This document shows positions 23,570-43,929 of a stretch of 60,788 nt of DNA, piece by piece; within the stretch, counting starts at the first letter, position 1, and each line of letters starts with the position of its first letter. Both the position numbers and the translations under genes were made by a program. The notes under the pieces were generated by a model. The model did no database searches, was not told the DNA's origin, and saw nothing but the letters and a program-made list of their open reading frames with translations. Source of the stretch: an uncultured Planctomycetales bacterium (lineage in GTDB: Bacteria > Planctomycetota > Planctomycetia > Pirellulales > Thermoguttaceae); NCBI GenBank assembly GCA_946541595.1, contig CAMNJU010000001.1:1-60788 (forward strand). The letters are read 5' to 3'.

Positions 23570-26500
23570 ATGAGCAGTTTAACTCGAATTAGTTTAACGC
23601 TTGTCTTAGCGCTTTCCTTTTTGGGCTTACACGGAGTCGTTCTGGCTCAGTCTGAAAGCGTTAGCTCGACTTCCAGCGAGACAACTTTTGCTCCAATCCT
23701 TTCCAACGTGGAAGGACGCGCCCCTTTTCAGCCGGGCCTCATGCGTGTCGACGTCTCGCTTTCCTCCTCCACTCCGACGTCATGGGATGGAGAATTTCGG
23801 CTTTCTCGGGGCGAATTTGCCGATCTAGTTCCACTCGGTTCAAACGCAACGAGTCCAACCGAATTTCTTTTTTCTGACTCAACACAAAGCCGTCTCACTC
23901 TCTCCACTCGGGCTCCAACAACGTTCTGTGGCGTGGAAACTACTATCTTTGCGCCACGCGACGCCAGACTTGACGTCAAACTTCGAAATCGCCAGAGCGG
24001 TAAAACGTTTGCTCAAACAATTTTTGTCGACCGTCTACTTGATTCAGCGGCGAGAATTCAGCTAGATAATCAAGGGAACGGTTTGGAAGTCGTACGAACG
24101 ACAGCCGACGATTTGCCGATTCGAATTACCCGTATTTCAGGGGCTGATTCGCAGTACTCCTTAAACTCCCGTGAAACGACCGTCTTTCAACCTACGGATA
24201 AAATCATATTAGAAACGCTCCCAAGACTTTCGTCAGTAAAATTACCTGATGAAATGGTTCTCACAGCGACTGCCAGAACTGCCGACTCTCAAGAGCCGTT
24301 CTGGTCTGAAAGTCGCAACGTAACCTTGGTCGAACTGCAGCATGCAGCGATCATAGCGGGCGATAAAAGCGCTCCTCTCGACGTTTTCGAGTTTATGTTT
24401 CCTGTTCCCGTCAAAGACGGGGTCTTTGAAATTGTTCTGGAGCTCACGAGCAAGACGTCCGATCCCCTTAAAACAACTTTTGTCCTTCCCTCCACGACAA
24501 AAAAACGGACTTCTCCTACGACATACGCACGCCGTGTCGTTCAAGGCGTTGTCGTTACAAGAAACACTGACAAGGCGGAACGAGTCTCGGGAGACTCCGC
24601 TTCACTCGACAGCCTTCGCGCCGACCTTTTGGAAACAATCGATCCCACAAACCCATCGTGGTTTAAAAATTATTCCAAACGTTCTATCATTCCTTTTCGC
24701 AAGCCCAATTCCAAAAACGGTAAGAAACTCTTTACGAGCGCCGAGGAGACGAACCTGGAATACGATGAGACAATCGTCTCGTCTCCGTTGAAAACTTTCG
24801 CGTCAGTCACGCCTTCCAGCCCCTCAAAAGACGACCAAGAAGCGCAAGAGGAACGCATCTTCCTTGCTCAGGAATCTAACGAACACGCGTCTAGCGTGTC
24901 GTCAGTCCCACTGGGGAAAAACCTTCTCGGACTTGTCCCTTCGGTAAGCGGCAAAGGTAAAGCCAATGAACTCGCCGCCGCTGCAAACGAAAGGATCGAC
25001 TTCCTTAAACGGTGGGAATCAGATCATTTTCAGACTTTCGTACGAACTCTTGACAACAGTGATTGGGGGATTAAATCAGATCTATGGGAGAAAGCTCTCA
25101 GCAGCGGCTCTTCACGTCCTTTCAACGAGAACGAGTTAGCCCAATACGCAACTACTCAGTCTCGCTTTATGAGGTTGGCGCCAAATCGACAGAACTCCGA
25201 TCTTTCTAACGTTAACGACGAAAAAGTTTCATGGGAAGCTTATCCAATCCCAATCGAAACAGTCGGTATTCCTTACATTCTGGAAATTGAGTATCCCGCA
25301 AACTTTCCCCAAAAACTTGGCATAAGCATTCTGGAGCAGAACGCGTTAGGCGCCTTGTTCCCAACGGCGATTGACGTAGGTCTAACAGTAAGCAAGGACG
25401 AGTTGGCAGATCGTGCAAATAATGAGATTGCACGGTTTACAACCCTATTTTGGCCACAAACAAACAATCCTATAATTCTGCTCTCTAACTGTTCCGACAA
25501 AACCGCCGCTGCGTACGGCCAAATTAGAATCTATCGCGCAGCGCCGGTAAACGCGAACGCCAGCGTTAGAAAACAAGGAAGAACTTTCGGAACGGCCTTG
25601 ACGACTCCTGACTTATGCGGCCAGTTTTCAGCCGCACGAAAATCTTCGCAGTTTGGCGTTACCGGAGCGGAAGACTGGAATACGTTTGAAGACTCGCTTT
25701 CGAGAGCCTTGTATTACCTTTCCGCCGCAAACATTGACTCAATGGTTTTGTCAGTCGTCAGCAACGGATCAACGTTATATCCAAGCAAGCGTTTGAATCC
25801 GTCGCCAGCGTACGACAGAGGCGTCTTTCTGCCAAGTGGAGGAGATCCGGTACGAAAAGACGTTCTAACGCTGGCAATGACTCGTTTTGAAACCCAAAGA
25901 AAACGCCTAATTCCACTTGTCCAACTCAACGCAACCGTTCCAGCTCTTGAGTACAAGTTGAATGCGCTCAATTCAAGTACCGCGACGCCTGAAAGCCGGG
26001 CGGCGTTTGAAGGAATTGAATGGATCGGCGCAGACCGTCGAAAATTAGTTGATTCGCGTCGTAAAGAGGACGGTTCCGGTCCATATTATAACGTCCTTCA
26101 TCCGGAAGTTGAAAAAGAGGTTTTAGCGATTGTTCGTGAGATTGTCGCTCAATGTTCCTCTTTCGACAGTTTCGACGGTCTGGCTCTCGACGTTGGCGCC
26201 AGCGGTTGGTTGGCATTGCCTGACGACATATATTACGGGATGGACGACGAAACAATCGCACGTTTTGTTCGTGAATCGAATTTGCAAGAGTCGCTGTCAC
26301 GAAAGGGCGACAGGCGCGTTCAGGAACTTTTGTTAGCAAAAGGAAACGAACGTTACCGAGCCCGAGCGCTCTTTATCCATGACGTGTGCCTTAACGAATG
26401 GCTTGAGTGGCGAGCCGAGGCGCTTTACAGTTTTTACGCGCGAGTTCGTCTTACTATCGCGGAAGCGCGTCCGGACGTTAGATTGTATCTCGTTGCAACA

Positions 26501-28477
26501 AATGCTCTTGACGGTCCCGTTTGTCGTTCTATGCTTTATCCTTCGCTTACTAACCCCAGAAAAGTGCGAGAGGCGCTTCGCTTGGTGGGGTTAGATCCTG
26601 TTTGGTTTGGGCCAGAACCGAAAAGACGACCTTCCGCAGTTATATCGCAAGTTGGATATGACACGGTCAAAACAAGAAAAGTAACCGATAATTCCATCAC
26701 CCTTTTACGTCCGGAGATTGTCGCAGGAACCGTTTCTCCCCTTCCAAACGTCCTGCAAGACGGAATGAAGGACCCTGAGACCGTCTCGCTTTTCGCGAGA
26801 ACTCAGGCGTATCCCGGCGCATTCTTTTTCCACCAATCCCAGCAAATGCCTCTTTACGATTTTGACAGAGTCAGTCCCGTTCATCCGACTGTCGCCGAAC
26901 TCCAAACGAAGGCCATGCCAGCAGGCTATGAAAACAAGCGTCGGTTTGCCCGCGCTTTGGCGTTAGAGGACGTCTTGTGTTTCTTCGACGGGGGCGCTAG
27001 TCTCCCGATGGGGCAGGAAGAAACGTTATACGACTGGATAAATGTCTATAAAAATCTTCCAAACGCCGTTTTTAGAACTTGGTCGCCCAAATCGGAAGCT
27101 AACAGCGTCGTCGATCAAGATTCTTCAAATGGCGACTCTCCGGAAGAAAAGACAATCCAACCTCTTGTTGTAAGATATTATCGAACCGAAAAAGAAACAT
27201 GGATATATTTTTTAAATGCGGCGCCGTTCCATTTGGGAGTAAAACTTGCGCTAAAACGAAAATCGAATGCGCGCTTTGAAGTATTTGCCGGCGATCGCTA
27301 TGACAAGCCAAACGCCTTTGGCGAATCGCTTGATTGGAACTTTACGGCAGCGCCGTACGACCTCGCCGCCATCTGCGTAGATGATCCTAACGTAACTTTC
27401 GACTCAATTGAGGTTTCTCGACCTTCTGAAATTTGTGGTCCTGAAGGACGTTTGCAAAGCGCCGTTCAAGATTTTGTGGATCGCGCGCTAGTATCGCGTT
27501 CCGGGGTTGCGGTACCGTTACGAAACGGCAGTTTCGAAGAATCTCTCACGCCGTCTGACGGAGCTCAAACTGATGAACAATCGGCTCAGTTAACTTTGGA
27601 GGAAAATCGGGACTCAGAATCTGTCGAAACCGATAGGGCGAATCTGTTTAGCGTCGACGTCTCAAGGGTAAAAATCTTCCCAAAAAGGCATGACGATGAA
27701 AAGACGCCTAAGTCGGAAACCGAGACTGTTGTCAATCCGCCTTTTGATCCCACTCGCATACCGGGCTGGCGAACCTTTGGTCCAAACGACGTGGACGTCA
27801 GGTTAGACCAGAACGTTGCGCACGACGGACACGCGAGCCTGCGCGTCACTTCCCAGAAAAATACAGGCGGAGTCATTTGCCAACCGTTTGATTCGCCTAC
27901 CACAGGGCGTATCTTCGCGCAAATCTATGTTGGCGTCCCCGACAACGTTCAAGAGATCCCGCTGAACGTTTGTCTTGTCGGGAAATACAACGGCTTACCC
28001 TTCAATCGGAGAATATATGTGGGCAAGACGGCCTTAAAACAATCGCAAAAAATGAATGACGCCGATTCGGATAATGGAGTTGTTTGGGTTCGTGAAGTCG
28101 TCTCATTCGACGGTCTTCCTCTTGAAGGTCTCGACGACATTTCACTTCGCTTTGAACTTTGCGGAGCCGGAACTGTTTGGCTTGATCAAATCCGAATCTA
28201 CAAACTGGCCTTTGCCGACGTGGAACAGACGGAGCTAATGAAGCTAATCAATATGGCGGAATATAGAGCATCGAAAGACAGAACTTTCGACGTCCTTGTC
28301 ATGCTTGACAGCTACTGGGCTAAAATGTTAAAGGAACAGATTGCAGACGACTCGCCATTGCTTGAATCAAGACCTCGGCGTCCTTCCTCGGTAACTCTCG
28401 CGCCCGATGAAGAAACTGGTAATACTAAAACCCCAGGCTTTTTTGATCGGACAATAAACAAGATAAAATTCTGGTAA
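23570..28477 (+). CDS. Giant (1635 aa) secreted protein of unknown function
   Basis: One uninterrupted ORF with an ATG start and the signal peptide MSSLTRISLTLVLALSFLGLHGVVLAQS. There is weak resemblance to GHL10/DUF187-type TIM-barrel proteins around nt 26080-26280 (YYNVLHPEVEKEVLAIVREIV...FDGLALDVG) and a jelly-roll/CBM-like C-terminal part. Neither was verified. Confidence 0.75.
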   Translation: MSSLTRISLTLVLALSFLGLHGVVLAQSESVSSTSSETTFAPILSNVEGRAPFQPGLMRVDVSLSSSTPTSWDGEFRLSRGEFADLVPLGSNATSPTEFLFSDSTQSRLTLSTRAPTTFCGVETTIFAPRDARLDVKLRNRQSGKTFAQTIFVDRLLDSAARIQLDNQGNGLEVVRTTADDLPIRITRISGADSQYSLNSRETTVFQPTDKIILETLPRLSSVKLPDEMVLTATARTADSQEPFWSESRNVTLVELQHAAIIAGDKSAPLDVFEFMFPVPVKDGVFEIVLELTSKTSDPLKTTFVLPSTTKKRTSPTTYARRVVQGVVVTRNTDKAERVSGDSASLDSLRADLLETIDPTNPSWFKNYSKRSIIPFRKPNSKNGKKLFTSAEETNLEYDETIVSSPLKTFASVTPSSPSKDDQEAQEERIFLAQESNEHASSVSSVPLGKNLLGLVPSVSGKGKANELAAAANERIDFLKRWESDHFQTFVRTLDNSDWGIKSDLWEKALSSGSSRPFNENELAQYATTQSRFMRLAPNRQNSDLSNVNDEKVSWEAYPIPIETVGIPYILEIEYPANFPQKLGISILEQNALGALFPTAIDVGLTVSKDELADRANNEIARFTTLFWPQTNNPIILLSNCSDKTAAAYGQIRIYRAAPVNANASVRKQGRTFGTALTTPDLCGQFSAARKSSQFGVTGAEDWNTFEDSLSRALYYLSAANIDSMVLSVVSNGSTLYPSKRLNPSPAYDRGVFLPSGGDPVRKDVLTLAMTRFETQRKRLIPLVQLNATVPALEYKLNALNSSTATPESRAAFEGIEWIGADRRKLVDSRRKEDGSGPYYNVLHPEVEKEVLAIVREIVAQCSSFDSFDGLALDVGASGWLALPDDIYYGMDDETIARFVRESNLQESLSRKGDRRVQELLLAKGNERYRARALFIHDVCLNEWLEWRAEALYSFYARVRLTIAEARPDVRLYLVATNALDGPVCRSMLYPSLTNPRKVREALRLVGLDPVWFGPEPKRRPSAVISQVGYDTVKTRKVTDNSITLLRPEIVAGTVSPLPNVLQDGMKDPETVSLFARTQAYPGAFFFHQSQQMPLYDFDRVSPVHPTVAELQTKAMPAGYENKRRFARALALEDVLCFFDGGASLPMGQEETLYDWINVYKNLPNAVFRTWSPKSEANSVVDQDSSNGDSPEEKTIQPLVVRYYRTEKETWIYFLNAAPFHLGVKLALKRKSNARFEVFAGDRYDKPNAFGESLDWNFTAAPYDLAAICVDDPNVTFDSIEVSRPSEICGPEGRLQSAVQDFVDRALVSRSGVAVPLRNGSFEESLTPSDGAQTDEQSAQLTLEENRDSESVETDRANLFSVDVSRVKIFPKRHDDEKTPKSETETVVNPPFDPTRIPGWRTFGPNDVDVRLDQNVAHDGHASLRVTSQKNTGGVICQPFDSPTTGRIFAQIYVGVPDNVQEIPLNVCLVGKYNGLPFNRRIYVGKTALKQSQKMNDADSDNGVVWVREVVSFDGLPLEGLDDISLRFELCGAGTVWLDQIRIYKLAFADVEQTELMKLINMAEYRASKDRTFDVLVMLDSYWAKMLKEQIADDSPLLESRPRRPSSVTLAPDEETGNTKTPGFFDRTINKIKFW

Positions 28478-29800: not shown

Positions 29801-29876
29801 CGGGGCATGGCGCAGTCTGGTTTAGCGCGTTTGACTGGGGGTCAAAAGGTCGCTGGTTCGAATCCAGTTGCCCCGA
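29801..29876 (+). tRNA. tRNA-Pro (anticodon GGG), copy 1
   Basis: 76-nt cloverleaf. Acceptor CGGGGCA/TGCCCCG, D-arm GCGC...GCGC, anticodon stem TTTGA/TCAAA with loop CTGGGGG (anticodon GGG), T-arm GCTGG-TTCGAAT-CCAGT, discriminator A. No CCA is encoded. Confidence 0.9.
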
Positions 29877-29914
29877 CTTAAGATTCGGTTTTAACCGCAT
29901 CGCACCATATTTTC

Positions 29915-29990
29915 CGGGGCATGGCGCAGTCTGGTTTAGCGCGTTTGACTGGGGGTCAAAAGGTCGCTGGTTCGAATCCAGTTGCCCCGA
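29915..29990 (+). tRNA. tRNA-Pro (anticodon GGG), copy 2, identical to copy 1
   Basis: The same 76 nt as 29801-29876, base for base, after a 38-nt spacer. Confidence 0.9.
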
Positions 29991-29998
29991 CTTTAAAA

Positions 29999-30030
29999 CC
30001 TCGTTTTTCTAAACGGGGTTTTTCTTTTTC
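29999..30030. terminator. Rho-independent terminator after the tRNA pair. It may also serve the convergent gene ending at 30049.
   Basis: CCTCGTTT (29999-30006) pairs with AAACGGGG (30011-30018), giving 8 bp including one G-U. The loop is TTCT and the hairpin is followed by TTTTTCTTTTTC. Confidence 0.7.
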
Positions 30031-30048: not shown

Positions 30049-32886
30049 TCAGTCAATGTTTCTCTCTATTTTCTGATATGACTCAATCAAAAGTTCACGA
30101 ATTGCTTCGACTGAGAAGTCGTCTTCCGATTTGAACCTCAAATAAACAGAGTCAAATTCCCCGTCTTTTTCCGCCAAAGCTATTTCAGGTTCAAAACCTA
30201 TCCCGTCAATTCGCTCTTGCGAAACTTCCCCCTTGGGGAAATTAACTTGCAGACATAAAAAATCGCTATTCTTAGTGAATAATTGAACCCACGGATACTT
30301 TCCTCCTGCGATTGTATAAGGGACGGAAGTTCTGTTCGTCCAAACGCTCGCGGCGTTTCGTCCCACCTTCTCAACGACTTCTAAGACAGATTCAAGCAAC
30401 TGCGTCGGCCAAAGCGCCTTATCGCTTGAACCGTAAAAACCATTTTGAGACGTATGCCACTTTCGTCCCTGCGTCTTCCAAGGCGTTAAATCGACGTCGT
30501 TTTCTTTACCGGAGTCAATAACGTCTGAAAAACGCTCAACTGCGAGATTGATGAAATTCCAAAACTCCGGTCGGTCTATTTCAGACAAAGAATAGACCTT
30601 CAGCTCTATTTCTTGCCAAGGACCAAAATTCTCAAATTTGACTCTCGGAAGCGTTCCGTATAAAGGAATCTCTTCAATCTCTTTGAGGGGACACAGAGCA
30701 AGCTTTCGAGTGAGTAACCCACGGTCAAACGTGTTTTTAGCGGTACGGAATTTTAGGCGCAGCAACCATTCTTCATTTGTGACAGCTCGCATAAACCACG
30801 CGCTTGTTTTCGATTCCGCGTGGATCTCGACAACACTGCGATTCATCCAATTGGCGTCGGCAAAAATTGGAAAATCTTCTAAACGGTCAACAATTGCGCT
30901 AAGAGCACGCCCTTCCCATTTGCAAGTTTCTCCGGAACGGGTAGTTCTAAACTGTGTGTGCCATCTTTTGCCGTCAACCTCCCACGGCTGTTCAAGACTG
31001 TCCGACTGAACTTCGTTCGATATCGAATCGTAAGTTACCGTACGATTTCTCTTAAGATTCTCCCAATAAGCCCGTGCAGACAAAACGGCTCGTTCTTCAA
31101 AAATGGCGTTCTTGAAAACAGGTATCAACGCCTCGCCAGTATAACTGCGAGGGGCGTTTTTACGAAATACAGGCGAAGTCTGCCATTGAGCTGCATAACT
31201 GAGGAGCTGTTCCGGAACTCCCGCAAAAACAAGTCTTCCTCCTTCTAGTCCAGCTTCTGGTCCAATCTCGATAATCCAATCCGCATTTTTAACAACGTCT
31301 AAATTATGCTCGACAACGATGACGGTATTTCCCAGATCAACGAGACGGTGTAGAACTTCCAAGAGTTTACGAACGTCTTCAAAGTGCAGTCCAGTGGTAG
31401 GCTCGTCGAGAATATAAAGAGTACGTCCAGTGTCAATCTGAGATAACTCCGCAGCTAATTTAATACGCTGTGCTTCGCCGCCAGAAAGAGTCGTCGCGGG
31501 CTGTCCCAAAGGTAAATAATCAAGCCCGACGTCGCAAAGAGTACGCAAAATTGCCGCGAGCGGCGGAATATGCTCAAAAAATTTCAAAGCGTCGCCACAA
31601 GTCAACTCCAAGACGTCCGCTATTGATTTACCTCGATATTTGACTTGGAGCGTCTCCTGATCATACCGTTTTCCTCCACACGCGTCGCATACGATCAGGA
31701 CGTCCGGCAAAAAATGCATTTCCACCTTGATCATTCCCGCGCCTTCACACTTATCGCAACGACCGCCCGGAACATTAAAACTAAATCGACTTGCAGAGTA
31801 ACCACGCAATTTGGCTTCGGGAAGTTGCGCAAAAAGTTGTCGAATTAAATCAAAAAGCCCCGTAAAAGTCGCGGCGTTGGACGTCGGGGTTAAGCCAATA
31901 GGCGCTTGATCAACTTTGACAACCTTGTTGATCCGATCAAAACCGATCACGCTGTCGCATGCTCCGCACGATATTTGAGAGTGGTTTAAAACGCGGGCAA
32001 GATACCGATACAACACGTCCTCAACCAAAGAACTCTTTCCGCTTCCGCTCACGCCTGTAACAACTGTAAACGCAGACAGAGGAAAGGGAACGTCAATAGA
32101 TTTCAAATTATGCTGGCGAGCTCCCTGAACAACTATCCAACCCGATTCCCAGTAAGGAAGGTCGTCGAGGGAACTGACGTCATGGGTTATTGACGCCGCT
32201 GTCTGTTTTGTTTTTTGACGCCGTGCACGACGTTTTTTCTCTTCATCGGAAACCTCGAAATCGTGAATTCGAGTATAAATTTCCGATACGTCTTCCAGCC
32301 AATTCTGGGCATTAATCGCGGAGGTGTCCTTTAACGCCGTTTCCTTGGCGCTTGCGCTAACAACTTTCTCGGACTTTCCTGAATTATTTTTCGGAGACTT
32401 CTTTCTCGACTTAACGGTTTGAGAATCCCTCTCTAATTCACTGTTTTTTTCGACTTTAGTTCTACGAATCGACCGTTTTCTTTGCGTTACGGACTCCGTC
32501 TCCAAGTCGCTTTCTATTGTCGTCTTGTCTTCAGCAAAAACCGCTGAGTTTGATTTTTTGGCACGAATTGACGCTTTTTTCTCACCGGTTCTTTTGTCTT
32601 CTGTACACTTATCCGAAGAAGATTTACGGGAAACACGTTTAGAACCTTTTATACTTGACTTCGCCGAAGTCGGCTCTTTACCGTAGGTAGTTCCCATTTC
32701 GGGATCGTCAAAAAGACTGGGTTGGTTATTACCAACTGCACGATCTGTCTTCTTGCACGAAGACGATTTCACACGCTTTGCCCCCTTTTCATCACCGCCC
32801 GTTAGCCCCTGCGATTTTTCAGGCGTTGCGTCTGAGTCTTGTAAAACTTCCGACGTTTCCGTCTTCCGTAAAGCGCGTTTTTTCAT
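30049..32886 (-). CDS. UvrA-like half protein: a Lys/Ser-rich N-terminal tail, a UvrA NBD-II-type ABC module and a duplicated C-terminal domain of unknown function
   Basis: aa 248-590 match the second half of UvrA ([37 protein letters not shown]; VDQAPIG...; [17 protein letters not shown]...CDACGGKRY; [15 protein letters not shown]; [16 protein letters not shown]; [10 protein letters not shown]). aa 1-240 are low complexity and basic. aa 591-945 have no UvrA counterpart. Confidence 0.85.
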
Positions 32887-33009
32887 AGCATGTCCAATCC
32901 GTTATTTCTAACGTCGCTTTAATAAAGCAACTTTCCGTATCGGGAAAAAATAAAAGTCGTACAAAACAATTTGCCAGACGGCGACAAAAGTTCCAGTTAT
33001 CAACGCTAA

Positions 33010-36000
33010 TCAGAGCAAAATCCGACGGTTTACAGGAATAGGAATCCCCTTCTTGCCAGATAAATATGGACCGGTTGTCGAATTAGCGTTTTGTTTAACC
33101 TCGTCTACGGTTCCCGACGCGACTACCAATCCTCCCTGTGCGCCCGCACGAGGGCCAAAGTCTATTACATTGTCGGCGCTTTCAATCACTTCTTGATCGT
33201 GCTCGACGACAATAACGGTGTTTCCAAGGTCACGCAATTTTTTCAACGCGGCAATAAGTCGACAGTTATCGCGATTATGAAGTCCAATCGTGGGCTCGTC
33301 CAAAACGTATAACACGCCAACAAGCCCACTGCCAATCTGCGCAGCCAGACGAATACGTTGCGCTTCTCCGCCGGAGAGAGACGGTGTTGGACGCGACAGG
33401 GTCAAGTAATCGAGACCAACGTCCGATAAAAAACGCAGCCGCGAAATGATTTCCTCAAATAAATCCCCAGCAATCGCCTTTTCAAGTTCGGTAAATTGCA
33501 GGTTTTCGAAGAAAGCCACAAGTTCCCCAATCGGCGTTCTGCAAATTTGATCAAGAGTTAGGTCGTGAAAACGAACGGCAGAAACGTCGTCACGCAGCCG
33601 ACTCCCCAAACATGCCGAGCATTCATGCTCGTCAATTTGATATTCCAACCTCCCTCGATAGTATGGAACCAAACGTCCAGCCTCCTCAGTCGCAGAGTAA
33701 ACGCCTTTAAATTGGAACTGAAAAACAACCCTGTTTGCGCTTGCTCTGGTCCAATCTAAAGCTCCTTCTGCCCGATCGTTCGGACTCTCGGCAACGCGAG
33801 CTGCTTCTAAATCACATTCAAGAACCTGAATCCAACGTTCGCCGGTTCCGTTGAAAACAAATCTGCGGAATCTCGCGTCAAGACGGTCAAAGGGGACGTC
33901 AAGAGGAGTTCCTGTTTCACGCGCAAATGCGCGCATCATAGCGGTTGTCGTAGGAGTTCTGAAATCGGACCAAATCGAAACTGCGCCTTCTGCAAGCGTT
34001 AATTTCGGATCCCTAATAAAATTGTGAGGATTAGCTCCGGAATGTACCCCCAACCCCTCGCAGTGCGGGCACCAACCTAAAGGACTATTAAAGGAAAAAT
34101 GGCGAGGCGTAAGCGCTTCAAAAGCTCGCCCGCATTTCTCGCAAGATAGCTTTTGACTCATAGTCTGAACGATCCAATCACGTTCAGGTCTTCGATCGTC
34201 GGCAATTATCAATCTAACGACGCCTTTTCCCCATTCCAACGCGGTCTCAACGCTGCCAGCTACGCGTCCCCTGCGGTTGCGCTCCGCCTTTTCGTCTGAA
34301 CTAATCTTTAGTTGGAAACGGTCGACAATGACGTCTACTTCAACAAGCGATTTGCGGCTTATTTCAGGAGGTTCGTCTAACGAATATGTCGTTCCGTTTA
34401 CGCGCACACGGGAAAACCCCTGTGCACGTAAACGTTCCCATAACTTCGGATAGTCTTCCCCAGAATCTAACGAAAGCGGCGCTGTCAGTAATGCGCGCGC
34501 TCCGGTATTTTGAAGCATAATCCGTGCGACGATTTGATCCGTAGTTTGCGCCCCGATCGGCAAACCGCAATCTGGACAATAAGGAGTTCCCAATCGAGCA
34601 AAAACTACGCGTAAGTAATCGTGAACTTCCGTAACGGTTCCAACTGTCGAACGCGGAGATTTGCTCGTCGATTTCTGCTCAATTGCAATAGAAGGTGAAA
34701 TCCCTATCGTTTTTTCTACTTTCGGCTTCTGAATTTGTCCTAAAAACTGTCGTGCATAGCTAGAAAGACTTTCGACATAGCGTCTTCTTCCTTCTGCGTA
34801 AGCCACGTCGATCGCCAAAGACGATTTACCGCTTCCGCTCGGTCCGCAACAAACGGTCAACTTATTGCGTGGAATTTCTACTGAAATGTTCTGCAAATTA
34901 TGTTCCTGAGCGCCTCGAATAATAATAGGACCTTCAACGTCGGATTCAGCGAAAAGATCGGTCGTTTTATCCTCGGACGAAGCTAATTTCTGGACCAATT
35001 TAGCCCGATCACGATTCAGGAATTCCTTCAAGGCCACGCCGGTATGCGAATTCGGATTAGCAGCAATATCTTCCGGGGAACCTTCGGCAACTATTTGTCC
35101 ACCGGCTTCCCCCCCTTCCGGGCCTAAATCAATGACCCAATCCGCCATTTTGATAACGTCTAAATTGTGCTCGACAATGAGTACCGTATTGCCCGCGTCG
35201 GCAAAACTGCGAAGCACTTTCAAGAGGAGACGAACATCGGCAAAATGTAATCCAGTCGTTGGTTCGTCGAGAAGATACATGGTCTTACCAGAACTCTTTT
35301 TGACGAGTTCTTTTGCTAATTTGACACGCTGCGCCTCGCCGCCTGAGAGCGTCGGAGACGGTTGACCAAGCTTCATATAACCAAGACCGACTTCATAAAG
35401 AGTTTGTAATTTTTCACGAATCTTTGGAATATTCTCGAAATGCTTCAGAGCCGACTCAACGTCGAGTTCCAAGACTTGATCAATCGATAAACCCTTATAC
35501 TTTACAGCGATTGTCTCTTGATTAAACCTACGGCCTCCGCAAACAGGACAAGTCGCCCAGACGTCGGAAAGAAAATCCATTTCGAGACGAGTTGAACCGT
35601 TTCCCTCGCAAGCTTCGCAGCGGCCGCCCGGCACGTTAAAACTGAACCGACCGGGCGTAAAACCTTTTGCGCGAGCCTCCGGAGTTTCTGCATAGAGCTT
35701 TCGTATTTCGTCAAACAACTTTATGTATGTCGCCGAATTCGATCGGGGCGTACGTCCAATCGGAGATTGATCTATCGAAATCAATTTATTTAAGTATTCA
35801 ACACCCTCTATTGATTTATAATGTCCCGGTCTACCGTTAGCCCTATTTAATTCCCGCGCAAGAATTTCCTTCAAGACGTCGTTGACAAAAGAACTTTTTC
35901 CGCTTCCGCTCACTCCCGTAATACAAACGACCCCACCCAGGGGTATTTTCACGTCGATATTCTTCAAATTGTGATGGGTAACGCCGTGAACCACGAGCCA

Positions 36001-38358
36001 TCTCCCATCTGGCTTTTTGCGCTCGGCAGGGATCTCAATCGATTCATCGCCAACTAAATATTTCGCTGTTAGACTGTTATCTCGTTGAGAGGTCAGCACG
36101 TCGGAAACAGCGCCAGAAGCTACGACACGCCCGCCATGAACGCCGGGTCCCGGACCAAAATCCACCAAGTAGTCCGAAGCCAACATCGTATCTTCGTCAT
36201 GTTCGACCACGAGAACGGAGTTACCCAGATCCCTAAGTTTGTACAGAGTATTAATTAAACGCTCGTTATCCCGTGGGTGTAGGCCAATCGACGGCTCGTC
36301 CAAAACGTACATGACGCCAACTAGTCCGCCTCCTATTTGCCCCGCCAATCTAATACGTTGCATTTCGCCGCCGGACAGCGAAGGCGCTGAACGACCGAGC
36401 GAAAGATAATTCAAGCCGACATTTAGGAGAAAACCAAGTCGCCCGCGAATTTCCTTCACAAGATCCTTCGCAATGACTCGCGCAGAGTCAGAAAGATTCA
36501 GGTCGCTGAAAAACTCAAGCAAATCGGAAATTGGCAAGTTCGACAGTTCAGGAAGGGAGTAGGACTTCTTCTCGGCAAAAAGAGGCGCCTTAGAATTTGT
36601 CTCTATCCTGAATGAACGCGCCTGTTCGTTTAAACGCAATCCATGACAGTATTCGCAAGGAACGGTATTCATATAACGATCCATTGCGGCCAACTGCATC
36701 TTATTGGTCGTCTCCTGATACTGCTTGAGCATTTTAGGAATGATCCCTTCAAAGGTGCCGCCCCACTTATGCCCATTAGCCCCCTCATTGTAGGAATAGG
36801 TAATCTTCATATCGCCCGTTCCCCAGAGTAAGCCGCGTTTTACCCGTTCGTCAAGTTCCTCCCAAGCAGTCTCTAAAACATAATTCTTATCGAGGGAATA
36901 TCGTTTTTCCAAAGCGTCTGCCACGCCTTGGTAAATATGCTGATTCCAACGTCCCAACTCCTGCCACTTCCCAACTGGAACAATGCAACCCTGTTGAAAG
37001 GATTTTTTCCCATCAGGAATCAACAGCGCTGGATCGAAGGTATGAACGAAGCCCAAACCTTGACAGTGAGGACACATACCCTGCATATTGTTAAAGCTGA
37101 ACATTTGCGGGGTAGGACGCTCAAAACTCAAATTGCAATGAGAACACGCATAGTCGGCGCTAAAATACAGCTCGTCGCTAATCGCCGTCTCGAAATTAGC
37201 CTCCTGCGCAGTCTGTTCTCCCGCGGAGTCTGTTTTTTGAACAGTGGAATCATCGTTCAGATTGCTTTCCGGAGAGTCTTCTTGCCCAAGACTATTCGTG
37301 ACGTTCCTTTTCTGACTGTTTTTAGATTTGGCGCGCTTGCCATTAACTGCGTCTCCCTGTTTAGCAGACGGCTTCGTATTGTCGGCGCTATCGACAAAAT
37401 TGTCGGTCTCACTCTCCAAAGTGTCATTTAAACCATTTGGAGTCGCCTTTTTTTCTACGTTTGAAACCATCTGTGGAACGGCTTCAGTTTCGTCGCCAGC
37501 GTCGCTGGCGACATTGCCGAAATTAAAAGTTTGTTGCTCGGTTTCCCCGTCGTACCTCGCGTCAGTTATAGAACTGTCAGAGTCAAGAGAACCGTCCTCA
37601 CTTTGACTTTCAACAGGAAAACGAAGACGGTCGTTCAAAGGATTCCGGTCAAGGAGAACAATTACCTGCCCCTTCCCTAACTGGAGAGCTAAGTCGACTG
37701 CTTCGGTTAGACGTCGGTATGTCGAATCCGACTGCTTTAAATGGTCGATTACGACGTCAACCGAATGCCGCGCTTGACGATCAAGATTAATCTCGTCGTC
37801 CACGGAAAGAAATATGCCGTCAATTCTGACCTTTCGAAACCCTCTTCTTCTAAGCCTGTTCAGAAGTTCGACACAGCGACCTTTTTGATTACGAATCAAA
37901 GGAGCAAGTATCTGAAAGGAAACGCCAGAAGGAATAATTCGAAGGCGTTCCAATATCTGCGAACGCGTCTGGGCAAAAATCTTGCGACCGCACTTAGGAC
38001 AATATCCAGTGGCAACGCGAGCGTAAAGGACGCGTAAATAGTCGGAGATTTCAGTAATCGTCCCTACGGTAGAACGAACGTTCTGTCCGGCGGTCTTTTG
38101 AGAAATTGAGATTGCGGGACTCAATCCCAAAACTTGGTCGACGTCAGGCCTGGGAAGTTGGCCCAAAAATTGCCGGGCGTAACTTGAAAGACTCTCTACA
38201 TACCGCCGCTGTCCTTCAGCATACAACGTGTCAAACGCAAAAGAACTCTTCCCGCTCCCGCTCACGCCGGTAAAGCATACAAAACGATTCCGAGGAAGCC
38301 GCAAATAAACGTCGTCCAAATTATGCTCGCGAGCGCCACGTACAATAATATCAGACAT
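33010..38358 (-). CDS. uvrA: UvrA-family protein with three ABC modules: one complete UvrA (NBD-I + NBD-II) fused to a second NBD-I
   Basis: Walker A motifs at aa 31-39, 815-823 and 1172-1180. Signatures LSGGEMQR (661), LSGGEAQR (1004) and LSGGEAQR (1661). All UvrA zinc CxxC pairs are present in units 1 and 3. The protein ends ...TTGPYLSGKKGIPIPVNRRILL, which is the inter-NBD linker of canonical UvrA. Confidence 0.9.
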   Translation of the reverse strand: MSDIIVRGAREHNLDDVYLRLPRNRFVCFTGVSGSGKSSFAFDTLYAEGQRRYVESLSSYARQFLGQLPRPDVDQVLGLSPAISISQKTAGQNVRSTVGTITEISDYLRVLYARVATGYCPKCGRKIFAQTRSQILERLRIIPSGVSFQILAPLIRNQKGRCVELLNRLRRRGFRKVRIDGIFLSVDDEINLDRQARHSVDVVIDHLKQSDSTYRRLTEAVDLALQLGKGQVIVLLDRNPLNDRLRFPVESQSEDGSLDSDSSITDARYDGETEQQTFNFGNVASDAGDETEAVPQMVSNVEKKATPNGLNDTLESETDNFVDSADNTKPSAKQGDAVNGKRAKSKNSQKRNVTNSLGQEDSPESNLNDDSTVQKTDSAGEQTAQEANFETAISDELYFSADYACSHCNLSFERPTPQMFSFNNMQGMCPHCQGLGFVHTFDPALLIPDGKKSFQQGCIVPVGKWQELGRWNQHIYQGVADALEKRYSLDKNYVLETAWEELDERVKRGLLWGTGDMKITYSYNEGANGHKWGGTFEGIIPKMLKQYQETTNKMQLAAMDRYMNTVPCEYCHGLRLNEQARSFRIETNSKAPLFAEKKSYSLPELSNLPISDLLEFFSDLNLSDSARVIAKDLVKEIRGRLGFLLNVGLNYLSLGRSAPSLSGGEMQRIRLAGQIGGGLVGVMYVLDEPSIGLHPRDNERLINTLYKLRDLGNSVLVVEHDEDTMLASDYLVDFGPGPGVHGGRVVASGAVSDVLTSQRDNSLTAKYLVGDESIEIPAERKKPDGRWLVVHGVTHHNLKNIDVKIPLGGVVCITGVSGSGKSSFVNDVLKEILARELNRANGRPGHYKSIEGVEYLNKLISIDQSPIGRTPRSNSATYIKLFDEIRKLYAETPEARAKGFTPGRFSFNVPGGRCEACEGNGSTRLEMDFLSDVWATCPVCGGRRFNQETIAVKYKGLSIDQVLELDVESALKHFENIPKIREKLQTLYEVGLGYMKLGQPSPTLSGGEAQRVKLAKELVKKSSGKTMYLLDEPTTGLHFADVRLLLKVLRSFADAGNTVLIVEHNLDVIKMADWVIDLGPEGGEAGGQIVAEGSPEDIAANPNSHTGVALKEFLNRDRAKLVQKLASSEDKTTDLFAESDVEGPIIIRGAQEHNLQNISVEIPRNKLTVCCGPSGSGKSSLAIDVAYAEGRRRYVESLSSYARQFLGQIQKPKVEKTIGISPSIAIEQKSTSKSPRSTVGTVTEVHDYLRVVFARLGTPYCPDCGLPIGAQTTDQIVARIMLQNTGARALLTAPLSLDSGEDYPKLWERLRAQGFSRVRVNGTTYSLDEPPEISRKSLVEVDVIVDRFQLKISSDEKAERNRRGRVAGSVETALEWGKGVVRLIIADDRRPERDWIVQTMSQKLSCEKCGRAFEALTPRHFSFNSPLGWCPHCEGLGVHSGANPHNFIRDPKLTLAEGAVSIWSDFRTPTTTAMMRAFARETGTPLDVPFDRLDARFRRFVFNGTGERWIQVLECDLEAARVAESPNDRAEGALDWTRASANRVVFQFQFKGVYSATEEAGRLVPYYRGRLEYQIDEHECSACLGSRLRDDVSAVRFHDLTLDQICRTPIGELVAFFENLQFTELEKAIAGDLFEEIISRLRFLSDVGLDYLTLSRPTPSLSGGEAQRIRLAAQIGSGLVGVLYVLDEPTIGLHNRDNCRLIAALKKLRDLGNTVIVVEHDQEVIESADNVIDFGPRAGAQGGLVVASGTVDEVKQNANSTTGPYLSGKKGIPIPVNRRILL

Positions 38359-39213: not shown

Positions 39214-42200
39214 ATGAAACGATTCGAACTAAACGAAAACGAGAAAGCTCTCATATGCAGTATCTTGGGGTATTTAAATTTTTCCTCGGGGTGCCGCGAC
39301 GTACAGTTCGTCAAAACATGGGACGATCTCTACAAAGATTTCTCTGAACGCGGTTCGACGGAAATATGGCGAGATTCCGTCGACGCTCTAAAGGAAGAAC
39401 TACCCCGCCTAGAAGCGGCCGGGGGCGCCTTTGTCGACTCAACCCAAGCTAAAAAAGCGCTCGAGCTTATCGATGAGTCTTTGGAAGCGTATCGAGAATT
39501 TCACAAAGACGTGTTATTTTCGCTTGATAATTCGTATCTATTCAACTCGTTCTTCATGAGCAGATTGTGCGACGTTATTACCCGAAACGCCCCCTTAACG
39601 CCGGACAAGGCAAAAATCGACAAAATCATTGTTCAATTAAACGACTATCTCGGTTACCGTCCTATTCCCGTTCTCGAGGGGGGGGAAAAACATGAACCGA
39701 ACAAGCATGAATGGATATCTCCACTTCCGATCTACATTGAAGGCGTAGGAACAGCGTTCGGCAAATATCAAAACGTTGTAGAGATAGCGCTCGAAATATT
39801 GAAAGATACTGATTCGTCCATTCTTAGCGACGCTTCGTTCATACCGGAAAAACTCCGAGAACTTGCGGTTGATACGCGGGCATACGATTACGATCACCCC
39901 GTTAATAGGCGGTTAAACTATAGTTTTGGAACTTGGGACGATCGTTGTATCGACAAAGAGGGGTATTTCCGTCGGTTCATCCTTCAGCGTGCGACCCTTG
40001 ACGCAATTATGAGCCGCGTCCAGAAAGAAGAAGACCCCGTTTTACGTAAAGAGTACGAATACGAGGCTGCTGCGATTCTGGCGGGAACTATGCTTATGGG
40101 CTCGGCCGTAAGCGGCGGACATGTTCAAGCGCACGACTCCTCTGTAACGCTGTCTTCGCTTACGCCTATTATTGCCCTTTTTCGAGACGAATTTTACGAA
40201 AAGTTGCTCGCTAAAACGCCAGAGCCCATAAAAACAAGGTTAGAAGAGGAAAAACGCCAGTTCTTCCAACCGTTTGCGGGAAGCCGCCAGTACCTCAACC
40301 AGTATCTTGCCCAAAAACGCGCAGATCAACTTCAACGCTTTTCACTGGCAAGGACGTACGCGCGTATGGGCTACTTTGAAGCGTCTAGACGTCAAACCGA
40401 AGTAATAGAAACCTCGGCTTCTAGGCTCCTTTCGCAAATTGATTGCTATATTACGCGATCTCATTTATCCGCCGATTCAGGCGCGCTTGAAGACGCCGCG
40501 GCTTGCATGCCTAAAATTGAAGAGCTTTTGCGCCGCGGACTTGCGTGCGGAGCGTTCCCGGATCCTTGGTTTATTTTAGGATTCGACGCGCAGTTTAACC
40601 TTTTCCCAACGGTAGAAGACGGCGTACATGATCATCGACTCGACGGGTTGATTGATCTTTTGAACGATATCTTCGACTTATACAGCCGTCTTCAAAAAGA
40701 GGCCGCGGCAGCGGGCAAAACAGAATTACGCTTGGAACTGTCTGACCAAATGAGCAGCCTCGCAGATTGGTGGGATCAGTTTGGGAGTACGGAAGTATCG
40801 TCTGTAGACGGTTTTTCCGGACAAGACGCTTGGGAATCCGCCGCCGAAGTATCAAGCGCGCTTGCCGTCTGGAGTCAAGCGGGCAAGGCGATCGGCGACG
40901 TCGCTTTTTGGAAACGGCATGTCAACCGTTTCAAGACGCCCAAGGCCTTTGTGCTTCTTTGCGAGGCGTTACTTGATAAGAACGACTTGATTTCCACTTC
41001 GTCGCTACTCATCTACTGGTTGAACCAATCAAGTTCCATTCCTCTCGTTGAAGGAGATTACTCTTTTCATTCTGTCGTCTTTGATTGGATGGAAAAGTCA
41101 TGGTCCAGCTCCGAAGAATTGGAATCGCCTTCTTTATTACGCAGAAAACGATCCGAATCCACCCGTCAATGGTCTGTTGAAGAATACCTAAAACGCTGGG
41201 GAACAACGACCAAATTTATGGATTTCTTCGGTGAAAACGCCGATTCCTACTGGTCAATTCCTTCGATAAATCTTCCCAAAGAAAGATTCGATCGCAAAAT
41301 TTTGCTGAAAACAGACAATCCTGTTATTGCCGAGTTGACTCGTCGTCTTCTTCTTTCGGTAAGATACTCTGGAAAGACTGCTACCGGCGTTCCGAAGATT
41401 TCTCTCAAAGCGTCGTTCAGAGACGATGCGAGATCTGTCGATGAAGAAGCTTTGTTCTCACCAGAGGAATTCAAAAAGTTTTATACTGATAATCAGAAGG
41501 TTTTCCCAAAGTATTTAACTTTTCAGGCCTTTATGCAGATCGTACTGAACGAAGTGCCTATGTCGCCACACAAATTGGCTTTCTACCGTAAGGAGATATT
41601 TGGCGATATAAATAAGTCTTTTTCCGTTTCTAATCCGACCTTCTCTGTTGGCAATCCCGACAAAAGCGGATCGGATATTGATAAAAATGAGGACTCCAAG
41701 AATAATCTTCTAAGCAAATTGAACGAGGAGTTACAAAGCCAGGACGTTGATTCTCTTGACGATTTTATCGAACGACTTCTTTCAAAAATGGACGATGGAA
41801 AATCGAAAGAAGGCGACCTCTCCGTCAATACCAACGTTGGAAACGAACATGCGTTAATCGTTCGGATCGACGATTGGGAATCAGATTCGATAGATTCAGA
41901 CGACTATGAAGAAGAATTCGACGAAGACGCCAAAAACGAATCTGTCGAGCATACAATTACCGGTGGGGATTCCAGATTCAGCGCCGCTTATGAACACATG
42001 AGCTATCATGACACCGCAGACGACGGAGTTGACGACGATATTGCGGGGGGTAAATCAAAATTTCAAGAGGGCGGAAACGACCTTGAATTTGGGCAAGAAA
42101 CTGACCGAATCTCTGAACGTTTGACTTTTATTATATCAACGGTCAAGTTATGGAAATTTGCAGCTGGACGCTCACCCCAACTCACGCTGCTTGAAAACGG

Positions 42201-43929
42201 CTCCTTGGACGACGACGTTTTAAGTGAATCAAGACTTCGTTTAGAAGAATGGCGTGACCAAGCGCTAAAATTTGAAACAGGCCTGTATGAACTCCTCGAT
42301 CAGGCGGCGCGACTGCGAATTCCACGTCCGTCTGGCACAACGGAGTCTCTGGTCGAATACGATCAGATTCGAGGAACAAAAGAAATTCTTCTCGACCGTA
42401 TCATATGGACAATTGTCGAAGTTGAAGACGTTATTGTCTTTCTTAAAGCCACGTTGCGCGATGAAACGACGGAAAAGTATGCTAAACCGTGGAAATCAGC
42501 CGTGCTAGAAACGTTTAGCGCGATATTCAGGAGGGACGTTAAACGAGTTCGGCTTCTTTGGCCGCAACTTCTTAGCAAATTGGAAACTGAGACGTTGCTT
42601 TACATTCCAACTTCACGCGGAGGAGACGCGAAGGCTATTGTCGAACGCCGCCGTTTGCAGCAGGTCGTTCTTAGTCTGCTCCGTTATACGCCGCGACTTG
42701 GGCTCCTTCGTGAAACGTTTCAGTTGATTTCCTGCGTGCAAAAGATGGAGCAGATCAGACTTTCGTCGCCGGGATCAATTACGGAATACGACAGACTTGT
42801 AGAAACCGCTACGCGCAGCATTACCGAATCGCTTTCGGAATCCTCTAAAAAATGGCGTGTCGACAGATCTCTTCCCGATTATAAAACGCGGGATCATATG
42901 CTGGTCGATTACTTGGCCGACGCGATAGAAATTATTTTAAAACATTGGTTGTCTCATAGTCAGCAGATAAGAGTTTCTTCGGTAGAAGCGCTCTCTTCGC
43001 CGCAACGCTGGAAGATAGTCAAGAGTTTTATCCAGAATTACGGTTCCGGTCTGTTCACGCAAGAATTTCTCTCGTTCCGGAGTCTTCGCGCTATTTTGCA
43101 TCAGGGAACTCATAATTATCTTTCCTCGTTGATCTCTTTGAAGAAGAGCGGGTACGACTTAGAGATCGGCGATCGGCTCGTTACCGCAATTGTCGACGGC
43201 AAGGAAAATTTAGATAACGTCGCCGCAACGCTCGAAATTATTATCGAATGCGTTGCGGAGAATTATATGGAATACGTCGACTACAACAGCACGACGATTC
43301 AATCAGACCGCGGCGAGAATCTTTATATCCTTCTTGACTTTTTCCGTACCCTTTGCAACTACGAAAGAACTTCTTGGAATCTCAAACCGATCTATTGGAT
43401 TCACGATTCGCTGATTCGTTCAGAACGCCCCGAAGCCGCTCGACTTTGGAAAGAAGACATAAAACAGAAAAGCTCCGGTCTTGCGGAAAACGGATTACGC
43501 GAATATGCCGAGCTTTGTCAAAAATATGGCGTTCGCTTACAGTGCGTCTATCAACGTCTTTCTGAACGCTTCGTTCGGCCGCTGGATATAGCTCAGATGT
43601 GCGGTCTAGTTTTTGATTCAATCTCGGCCGTTCGAAAAGAAGGAGAAAATAATCCTATCTTTGAAGAACTTTCCAAGGAAGTGGAGTCGTTTGCGTCGTC
43701 TCCGTCAGGAAATGGATTTGAACTCCCGGAATGGCTTACTACGCTTCAAGACGAGGTCGTTCTTTCCCGAGTTGACAGTAAGGAAGAACGCAGGGAAAAC
43801 GATTCAAAAGAGGATCCCTTTGAATCTATTCCCTTTTTGCCTATCGAACGCTTATCGCGTTCTGAAATCGAAGAACAGCTTCACTCGACGGTCTCGGAAC
43901 TTAAAGGTCAGTCTCATAAGAGAAGATAA
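39214..43929 (+). CDS. Giant (1571 aa) cytoplasmic protein of unknown function, predicted to be mostly alpha-helical
   Basis: One uninterrupted ORF with an ATG start, no signal peptide and no TM segment. There is an acidic low-complexity stretch around aa 830-960. No catalytic motif recognised. Confidence 0.75.
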   Translation: MKRFELNENEKALICSILGYLNFSSGCRDVQFVKTWDDLYKDFSERGSTEIWRDSVDALKEELPRLEAAGGAFVDSTQAKKALELIDESLEAYREFHKDVLFSLDNSYLFNSFFMSRLCDVITRNAPLTPDKAKIDKIIVQLNDYLGYRPIPVLEGGEKHEPNKHEWISPLPIYIEGVGTAFGKYQNVVEIALEILKDTDSSILSDASFIPEKLRELAVDTRAYDYDHPVNRRLNYSFGTWDDRCIDKEGYFRRFILQRATLDAIMSRVQKEEDPVLRKEYEYEAAAILAGTMLMGSAVSGGHVQAHDSSVTLSSLTPIIALFRDEFYEKLLAKTPEPIKTRLEEEKRQFFQPFAGSRQYLNQYLAQKRADQLQRFSLARTYARMGYFEASRRQTEVIETSASRLLSQIDCYITRSHLSADSGALEDAAACMPKIEELLRRGLACGAFPDPWFILGFDAQFNLFPTVEDGVHDHRLDGLIDLLNDIFDLYSRLQKEAAAAGKTELRLELSDQMSSLADWWDQFGSTEVSSVDGFSGQDAWESAAEVSSALAVWSQAGKAIGDVAFWKRHVNRFKTPKAFVLLCEALLDKNDLISTSSLLIYWLNQSSSIPLVEGDYSFHSVVFDWMEKSWSSSEELESPSLLRRKRSESTRQWSVEEYLKRWGTTTKFMDFFGENADSYWSIPSINLPKERFDRKILLKTDNPVIAELTRRLLLSVRYSGKTATGVPKISLKASFRDDARSVDEEALFSPEEFKKFYTDNQKVFPKYLTFQAFMQIVLNEVPMSPHKLAFYRKEIFGDINKSFSVSNPTFSVGNPDKSGSDIDKNEDSKNNLLSKLNEELQSQDVDSLDDFIERLLSKMDDGKSKEGDLSVNTNVGNEHALIVRIDDWESDSIDSDDYEEEFDEDAKNESVEHTITGGDSRFSAAYEHMSYHDTADDGVDDDIAGGKSKFQEGGNDLEFGQETDRISERLTFIISTVKLWKFAAGRSPQLTLLENGSLDDDVLSESRLRLEEWRDQALKFETGLYELLDQAARLRIPRPSGTTESLVEYDQIRGTKEILLDRIIWTIVEVEDVIVFLKATLRDETTEKYAKPWKSAVLETFSAIFRRDVKRVRLLWPQLLSKLETETLLYIPTSRGGDAKAIVERRRLQQVVLSLLRYTPRLGLLRETFQLISCVQKMEQIRLSSPGSITEYDRLVETATRSITESLSESSKKWRVDRSLPDYKTRDHMLVDYLADAIEIILKHWLSHSQQIRVSSVEALSSPQRWKIVKSFIQNYGSGLFTQEFLSFRSLRAILHQGTHNYLSSLISLKKSGYDLEIGDRLVTAIVDGKENLDNVAATLEIIIECVAENYMEYVDYNSTTIQSDRGENLYILLDFFRTLCNYERTSWNLKPIYWIHDSLIRSERPEAARLWKEDIKQKSSGLAENGLREYAELCQKYGVRLQCVYQRLSERFVRPLDIAQMCGLVFDSISAVRKEGENNPIFEELSKEVESFASSPSGNGFELPEWLTTLQDEVVLSRVDSKEERRENDSKEDPFESIPFLPIERLSRSEIEEQLHSTVSELKGQSHKRR

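Follow-up and report, generated by a model that had tools for sequence, protein, structure and literature searches.

Evidence for a conserved fission of the planctomycete tandem UvrA in Thermoguttaceae

UvrA is normally a homodimer, and its protomers behave differently once a lesion has been engaged. The junction between the two nucleotide-binding domains (NBD-I and NBD-II) is a protease-sensitive hinge in E. coli UvrA, and Myles and Sancar reportedly studied two fragments of the E. coli protein separately in 1991. Here we analysed a stretch of 60,788 nucleotides (nt) from an uncultured Planctomycetales bacterium (contig CAMNJU010000001.1, called the window below) in which two adjacent open reading frames (ORFs), ORF_A and ORF_B, between them encode two UvrA units and an additional C-terminal domain (CTD), the break falling inside the second unit. 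We read the locus as a fixed fission of the tandem UvrA of planctomycetes, the two products of which would reassemble as the ancestral pseudo-dimer, and we give this reading a probability of about 75%.

Each UvrA monomer has two ATP sites and each site is a composite of NBD-I and NBD-II (PMC12796330). The distal site pairs ATP-binding domain II with signature domain I; dimerisation takes place via ATP-binding domain I, and signature domain II accounts for most of the DNA contacts (PMC12796330). Two other forms of the protein are described: the double-length UvrA of Chlamydia (ct333) is a single ORF of 1786 amino acids (aa) (PMC6686042), and class II UvrA proteins have neither a UvrB-binding domain nor the first zinc finger (PMC9328131). 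We searched the literature on tandem or fused UvrA and on UvrA in Planctomycetes and found no paper on the tandem family, its function or its split.

Domain content of the two genes

The features of the locus, with their positions in the window and their strand, are as follows.

33010..38358, (-): ORF_A, 1782 aa; predicted complete UvrA unit 1 and NBD-I of unit 2
36049..38358, (-): NBD-I of unit 1, aa 1-770
37174..37656, (-): acidic low-complexity insert of unit 1, aa 235-395, 161 aa
35014..36048, (-): NBD-II of unit 1 with zinc module 3, aa 771-1115
34930..35013, (-): linker joining units 1 and 2, aa 1116-1143 (~28 aa)
33013..34929, (-): NBD-I' of unit 2, aa 1144-1782, terminating in NRRILL
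32887..33009, (-): intergenic spacer at the fission point, 123 nt
30049..32886, (-): ORF_B, 945 aa; basic tail, NBD-II of unit 2 and CTD
32146..32886, (-): basic low-complexity N-terminal tail of ORF_B, aa 1-247
31186..32145, (-): NBD-II' of unit 2, aa 248-567
30052..31185, (-): CTD of ORF_B, aa 568-945, 378 aa

ORF_A scored above the equivalog thresholds of both UvrA models (NF001503: 1959.7 bits with a cut-off of 1147; TIGR00630: 1909.3 bits with a cut-off of 729.8). Residues 1-1115 matched solved UvrA structures with E=0 and, judged by their sequence, constitute a complete class I UvrA. In unit 1 the NBD-I carries Walker A, zinc modules 1 and 2, the UvrB-binding domain, the DNA-binding insertion domain, the signature LSGGEMQR, Walker B and the H-loop. 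The NBD-I' of unit 2, which shares 37-46% identity with its unit 1 counterpart, has Walker A (GPSGSGKSS), two zinc modules, the signature, Walker B and the H-loop. Two stretches of ORF_A were matched by each of PF17760 and PF17755. For unit 2 the UvrB-binding domain was detected over the full model length (PF17760, E 1.3e-25) and the DNA-binding insertion in part (PF17755, E 2.8e-11, model positions 5-72 of 110). The stop codon of ORF_A is a TGA at 33010-33012 and the C-terminus of the protein reads ...YLSGKKGIPIPVNRRILL.

The acidic insert of unit 1 sits past the UvrB-binding domain and has a net charge of -18 and an isoelectric point (pI) of 4.2. It faces a gap when aligned with the solved UvrA structures. 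All 16 ORF_A-like proteins that were scored (see below) have an acidic insert as well, with net charges between -9 and -23.

ORF_B begins with a basic tail (pI 9.6, net charge +14, 22% K+R, 23% S+T), for which a Pfam search of aa 1-247 gave no match. The start of NBD-II' and its Walker A region (GVSGSGKSS) follow within aa 250-286, and the domain also contains zinc module 3, the signature LSGGEAQR, Walker B and the H-loop VVEHN. Residues 248-567 align with TIGR00630 over positions 610-923 (E 6e-153), and their identity to the unit 1 NBD-II is 57%. ORF_B alone reached 511 bits, which is under the cut-offs of both TIGR00630 and NF001503, as expected for half a unit. Ten CxxC pairs are found in ORF_A and two, those of zinc module 3, in ORF_B. 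To obtain the full motif set of unit 2 (Walker A, signature, Walker B, H-loop), ORF_A aa 1144-1782 has to be combined with ORF_B aa 248-567.

The original prediction described two co-directional ORFs 123 bp apart, which the coordinates 33010-38358 and 30049-32886 bear out. The order NBD-I, NBD-II, linker and NBD-I' that it proposed for the 1782-aa protein is confirmed by the profile matches and the structure alignment, and the TIGR00630 match agrees with its claim that ORF_B resumes as an NBD-II past a basic tail. Its statement that the pair encodes exactly two UvrA units has to be corrected: ORF_B also has the conserved 378-aa CTD, which the prediction overlooked, and unit 1 has the 161-aa acidic insert.

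The CTD consists of two alpha/beta repeats with the pattern PW..G..WH at the start of each, an internal duplication. Its AlphaFold2 model had a predicted local distance difference test score (pLDDT) of 89.9. For NBD-II' and CTD modelled together we obtained a pLDDT of 85 and a predicted template modelling score (pTM) of 0.54; the domains are confident singly but their relative placement is not, and the model thus predicts a CTD that is flexibly tethered to NBD-II'. Neither Pfam nor the PDB sequences gave a match to the CTD at E<=10. A Foldseek search returned weak domain-level likeness to the type III secretion system chaperone Spa15 and to the C-terminal domain of T4 MotA (template modelling scores 0.4-0.5), and we did not assign a fold. 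A CTD profile searched against 1.84 billion proteins yielded 623 representative clusters. Wherever the sequence upstream of the CTD was present it was an NBD-II, the exception being P0390 with ~150 unexplained residues. Judged from these matches, the CTD is specific to the C-terminus of planctomycete tandem UvrA. The CTD and the tandem architecture, in our view, merit further study no less than the split does.

Fused relatives and the position of the cut

The search with ORF_A returned two kinds of proteins. Those of the first kind are ORF_A-like (1673-1782 aa, 63-77% identical) and end past NBD-I'. The second kind is a single fused protein of 2300-2625 aa with NBD-I and NBD-II of unit 1, NBD-I' and NBD-II' of unit 2 and the CTD in this order; where such proteins are named they are called 'excinuclease ABC subunit UvrA' (Pirellulales, Thermoguttaceae, Planctomycetaceae). 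At the Planctomycetaceae and Phycisphaerales loci every module lies in one frame. A scan of contigs, which was dominated by the generic ATP-binding cassette (ABC) pattern DEPTTGLHF, returned four loci, all of them fused and from other orders. As the fused tandem form occurs across several planctomycete groups it is widespread and presumably the ancestral state. On the sequences compared, tandem UvrA is the normal form in planctomycetes and the split in the window a derived one.

Matches of ~1400-1650 aa at first suggested a second type of split ('0.5 + 1.5'), which we rejected: they are fragments, many of them on contigs that are about the size of the gene, with several entries marked 'partial' and with a single frameshift in unit 1 at the loci L001 and L002. 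These two loci (L001 5666-12650 and L002 6404-12893) carry fused tandem uvrA genes on multi-megabase contigs of one metagenome (ERZ25039595), with one unit 1 frameshift each that is probably an indel error. Fragments of such frameshifted genes show in protein databases as 'UvrA' entries of 1400-1650 aa. We also encountered another tandem UvrA-like kind of ~1600-1650 aa (P0085, P0106, P0110, P0111), in which both units are without the UvrB-binding domain and the CTD is absent, which suggests a class II-like form that has been duplicated.

Only a few residues lie between the ...P.ERK(K) motif and W-L-x-x-x-G in canonical UvrA, and the same holds for unit 1 of the window. The corresponding linker in unit 2 of the fused proteins is variable, with 5-83 aa and a median of 46.5. 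In three of the four closest fused proteins (P0138, P0139, P0141) it is 57-72 aa long, opens with NRR-ILC(D/E)LD and ends with LPxWxPG. For the ORF_B-like proteins we observed a tail of 87-255 aa in all that were scored except P0120 (22 aa). The tail ends with LPxWxxG like the fused linker, and it is basic (pI 9.4-10.2) wherever it has at least 87 aa. Since ORF_A stops three residues past NRR and the ORF_B tail ends in LPxWxxG, the cut fell within a pre-existing disordered insertion, and the sequence identifies the ORF_B tail as the expanded remnant of the unit 2 linker.

We considered whether the acidic insert and the basic tail arose together with the fission and rejected the idea, as an acidic insert and a basic linker are both present in the fused sister proteins P0140, P0141 and P0138. 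The opposite charges of the two elements, each of which predates the fission, suggest a possible electrostatic contact.

Conservation and age of the split

The exact 1782-aa ORF_A protein was found on 32 contigs (Logan, ENA). At all five loci examined, the one in the window and those of four other assemblies, an ORF_A-like gene lies directly beside an ORF_B-like one. A TGA follows NRRxxx at each of the five and the spacers are 89-139 nt long (with the upstream ATG taken as the start in L004). Furthermore, the C-terminus lies exactly three residues past NRR in 26 of 26 ORF_A-like proteins. With ORF_B as the query we detected 30 ORF_B-like proteins of 710-1022 aa, each with a variable tail, NBD-II' and CTD; P0119, taken for a 31st, turned out to be a fragment of a fused protein. 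Where they are named, the ORF_B-like proteins come from metagenome-assembled genomes (MAGs) of Thermoguttaceae or Planctomycetia and are annotated as 'hypothetical protein' or 'ATP-binding cassette domain-containing protein'. The consequence for annotation is that proteins so named are in fact one half of a UvrA unit.

These counts bear on the question of whether the gene is truly continuous and the break an assembly or sequencing error. Error-like single frameshifts do occur in the fused genes of one long-read metagenome. The identical 1782-aa product, in contrast, was recovered on contigs of different sources, the same break is present in the four other assemblies and three in-frame stops lie between the ORFs. 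An error is thus extremely improbable.

The three stops (TGA, TAG and TAA) are the stop of ORF_A and two further ones. ORF_B is in the frame of ORF_A in the window, as the 123 nt correspond to 41 codons, and stop readthrough or programmed frameshifting could in principle yield a single polypeptide. The three stops speak against such recoding, as do the relatives, in which the second gene is in frame 0, +1 or +2 with several stops in between. RNA folding of the spacer gave a structure no stronger than that of shuffled controls (z = -0.06). We therefore regard recoding as very improbable. The spacer together with the stop codon of ORF_A is identical to that of the relative L006 at 118 of 126 positions, and all three stops are kept. 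A scan of the 123 nt for promoters and terminators detected nothing promoter-like or terminator-like above background, which fits co-transcription of the two genes although it is no proof.

Neighbour-joining trees were built on simple corrected distances. In the NBD-I' tree the 26 ORF_A-like clusters form one clade with a bootstrap support of 100/100. Distances within this clade average 0.35 substitutions per site and reach 0.50, and the closest fused proteins (P0138-P0141) are at a distance of 0.53-0.57 from it. The distances of up to 0.50 within the clade indicate that the split is old. From the split clade to the other fused proteins the distances are just 4-15% above those of the fused sister group. 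For NBD-II' and CTD combined, 29 of 31 ORF_B-like proteins form a clade, and the whole group with its fused relatives has a support of 99/100.

To quantify selection we computed the ratio of nonsynonymous to synonymous substitution rates (dN/dS) against L006, which shares 91.5% nucleotide identity over 10.3 kb. The folded modules of unit 1 showed values of 0.007-0.044, NBD-I' 0.029, NBD-II' 0.018 and the CTD 0.10. Higher values were obtained for the inter-unit linker (0.77 over 28 codons), the acidic insert (0.37) and the ORF_B tail (0.33). All coding indels relative to L006 are multiples of three and all lie within low-complexity regions. No member of either family has lost Walker A, the signature, Walker B, the H-loop or a zinc cysteine.

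If the stop had recently inactivated unit 2, ORF_B would be a decaying remnant. L006 does contain a nonsense codon elsewhere in ORF_A (TCG to TAG at codon 873, window position 35742, in the NBD-II of unit 1), which may reflect an error in sequencing, a variant in the population or inactivation in the very recent past; otherwise the gene is under strong purifying selection. Pseudogenisation of unit 2 is nevertheless highly improbable: the position of the stop is conserved over 26 clusters down to 63% identity, dN/dS past the stop is 0.018-0.10, the motifs are all intact in 31 ORF_B-like proteins and the indels are in frame. On the sequence evidence the split is real, conserved and restricted to one clade in Thermoguttaceae MAGs, and neither decay nor an assembly artefact.

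The original prediction had described the motifs as intact and the locus as showing no obvious decay, which the invariant Walker, signature and zinc motifs of the clade and the dN/dS of 0.007-0.10 on the folded modules corroborate. It had also proposed to look for the split in related genomes, where it was indeed found (26 ORF_A-like clusters, with adjacent genes at all five loci). The architecture, which the prediction did not know to have been characterised, is not without precedent: tandem UvrA is normal in planctomycetes and a double-length form occurs in Chlamydia, so that the clade-restricted fission is what is specific to the window.

Several neighbouring features were recorded. Two identical tandem tRNA-Pro(GGG) genes at 29801-29877 and 29915-29991 (+) lie just downstream of ORF_B and are convergent with it. 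They are followed by a terminator-like hairpin at 29995-30022 (+), and the same pair is found in L006. Giant ORFs flank the locus at 39214-43929 (+; 1571 aa) and at 23570-28477 (+; 1635 aa), with no Pfam match or a weak one (GHL10, under the cut-off). L006 has the 1635-aa ORF in synteny, and L003 has a similar ORF of 1667 aa near the locus.

Proposed reassembly of the pseudo-dimer and comparison with known systems

We propose the following mechanism. The ancestral gene would have encoded one polypeptide with five modules, which make up UvrA unit 1, UvrA unit 2 and the family-specific CTD. One clade of Thermoguttaceae would then have acquired a stop codon and a new start in the linker that joins NBD-I' to NBD-II', a stretch that is variable and disordered. 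Co-transcription of the two genes is probable, as is reassembly of their products via the usual NBD-I/NBD-II interface. In unit 2, ORF_A would contribute the ATP-binding domain and ORF_B the signature domain of the proximal ATP site, with the roles exchanged at the distal one. As the ATP sites of UvrA are composite, neither site of unit 2 is possible without both proteins, and the strict conservation of the catalytic motifs on both sides leads us to infer that the products do reassemble. Completion of unit 2 in trans thus appears to be the most reasonable reading. The complex would rebuild the covalent asymmetric UvrA pseudo-dimer of the ancestor and may serve as a damage sensor in nucleotide excision repair, with a UvrB-binding domain in each unit. 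The fission itself was probably near neutral.

Two observations weigh against this account. The deep ORF_B-like proteins P0071 and P0120 fall with the four fused relatives P0138-P0141, away from the other 29; the trees are most simply read as one fission, though this is not fully settled on the NBD-II' and CTD half. In addition, the growth of the tail to 87-255 aa after the split (22 aa in P0120) hints at an added role that near-neutral fission leaves unaccounted for.

The second point leads to the one serious alternative, sub-functionalisation, in which ORF_B has become a separately dosed or regulated accessory subunit that joins ORF_A only on DNA or after damage. The basic tail and the CTD would supply contacts to DNA or a partner, and the complex would be functionally unlike the fused ancestor. 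This would be in line with the lengthening of the 57-72-aa linker of P0138, P0139 and P0141 to the basic tail of the split clade (bar P0120), with an acidic insert in unit 1 throughout the clade, with slightly raised rates for NBD-II' and CTD and with the flexible tether of the CTD (pTM 0.54, pLDDT 85). However, the genes remain adjacent with short spacers and no terminator-like site, and both ATP sites of unit 2 require both proteins (PMC12796330). We rate sub-functionalisation as unlikely because both the acidic insert and a basic linker are older than the fission, as their presence in the fused sisters P0140, P0141 and P0138 shows.

A stronger version, which we consider more doubtful still, is that the fission was adaptive and turned a covalent pseudo-dimer into a two-component sensor, the constitutive '1.5-unit' ORF_A core becoming a competent four-site ATPase only once ORF_B docks. 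Docking or DNA targeting would be set by the expanded basic disordered tail, possibly with the acidic insert, and by the CTD. If true, this would give bacterial nucleotide excision repair a step of regulated assembly, which is not known there.

We regard the finding as a modest evolutionary variant, in which a tandem UvrA with an existing annotation but no characterisation has undergone a real and conserved fission. The asymmetry of the UvrA protomers is hard to study while both share one gene. Planctomycete tandem UvrA offers a natural covalent heterodimer of two diverged copies with an extra domain, and the split clade adds a natural break exactly at the NBD-I/NBD-II boundary of one copy. 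Single ATP sites, UvrB-binding domains and the CTD could be mutated or omitted separately in this system. The locus also represents a clean and datable gene fission in a disordered linker, with both products strongly constrained.

The known systems closest to the window pair include planctomycete tandem UvrA (for example P0138-P0141, P0149, P0171), which agrees with the pair in its five modules and their order, in the CTD, in the variable unit 2 linker and in the site of the unit 1 insert. Its identity to the window is 55-65% for ORF_A, 64-71% for NBD-II' and 36-46% for the CTD. It differs in being one polypeptide, whereas the gene in the window is cut past NRRILL and the remnant of the linker is enlarged to a 247-aa basic tail that opens the second gene.

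Compared to canonical class I UvrA (E. coli, G. stearothermophilus 2R6F, T. maritima 3PIH, M. tuberculosis 3ZQJ), unit 1 corresponds to a complete class I protein, and every class I module is also found in unit 2, assembled from both proteins. Canonical UvrA has ~940 aa and forms a homodimer; the window has two diverged copies in one chain, an added CTD and a split second copy. The chlamydial double-length UvrA (NF001885/PRK00635) likewise belongs to the Planctomycetes-Verrucomicrobia-Chlamydiae superphylum and its NF001885 model matches ORF_A. Compared via this model only, the scores of 983 bits for ORF_A and 303 for ORF_B are far from the cut-off of 3054 and the pair is not the chlamydial equivalog. 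Class II UvrA proteins (UvrA2, DrrC, Ecm16) are UvrA paralogues with two NBDs like the window units, but both units of the window retain the UvrB-binding domain and the first zinc finger.

ABC systems with NBDs on separate polypeptides form composite ATP sites from two separately encoded NBDs. In those systems the separation is the rule, whereas here a normally covalent pair of NBDs has been parted and one half is still attached to a complete UvrA. By every sequence criterion tested the window pair is classified as UvrA, and it is a split member of the planctomycete tandem UvrA family.

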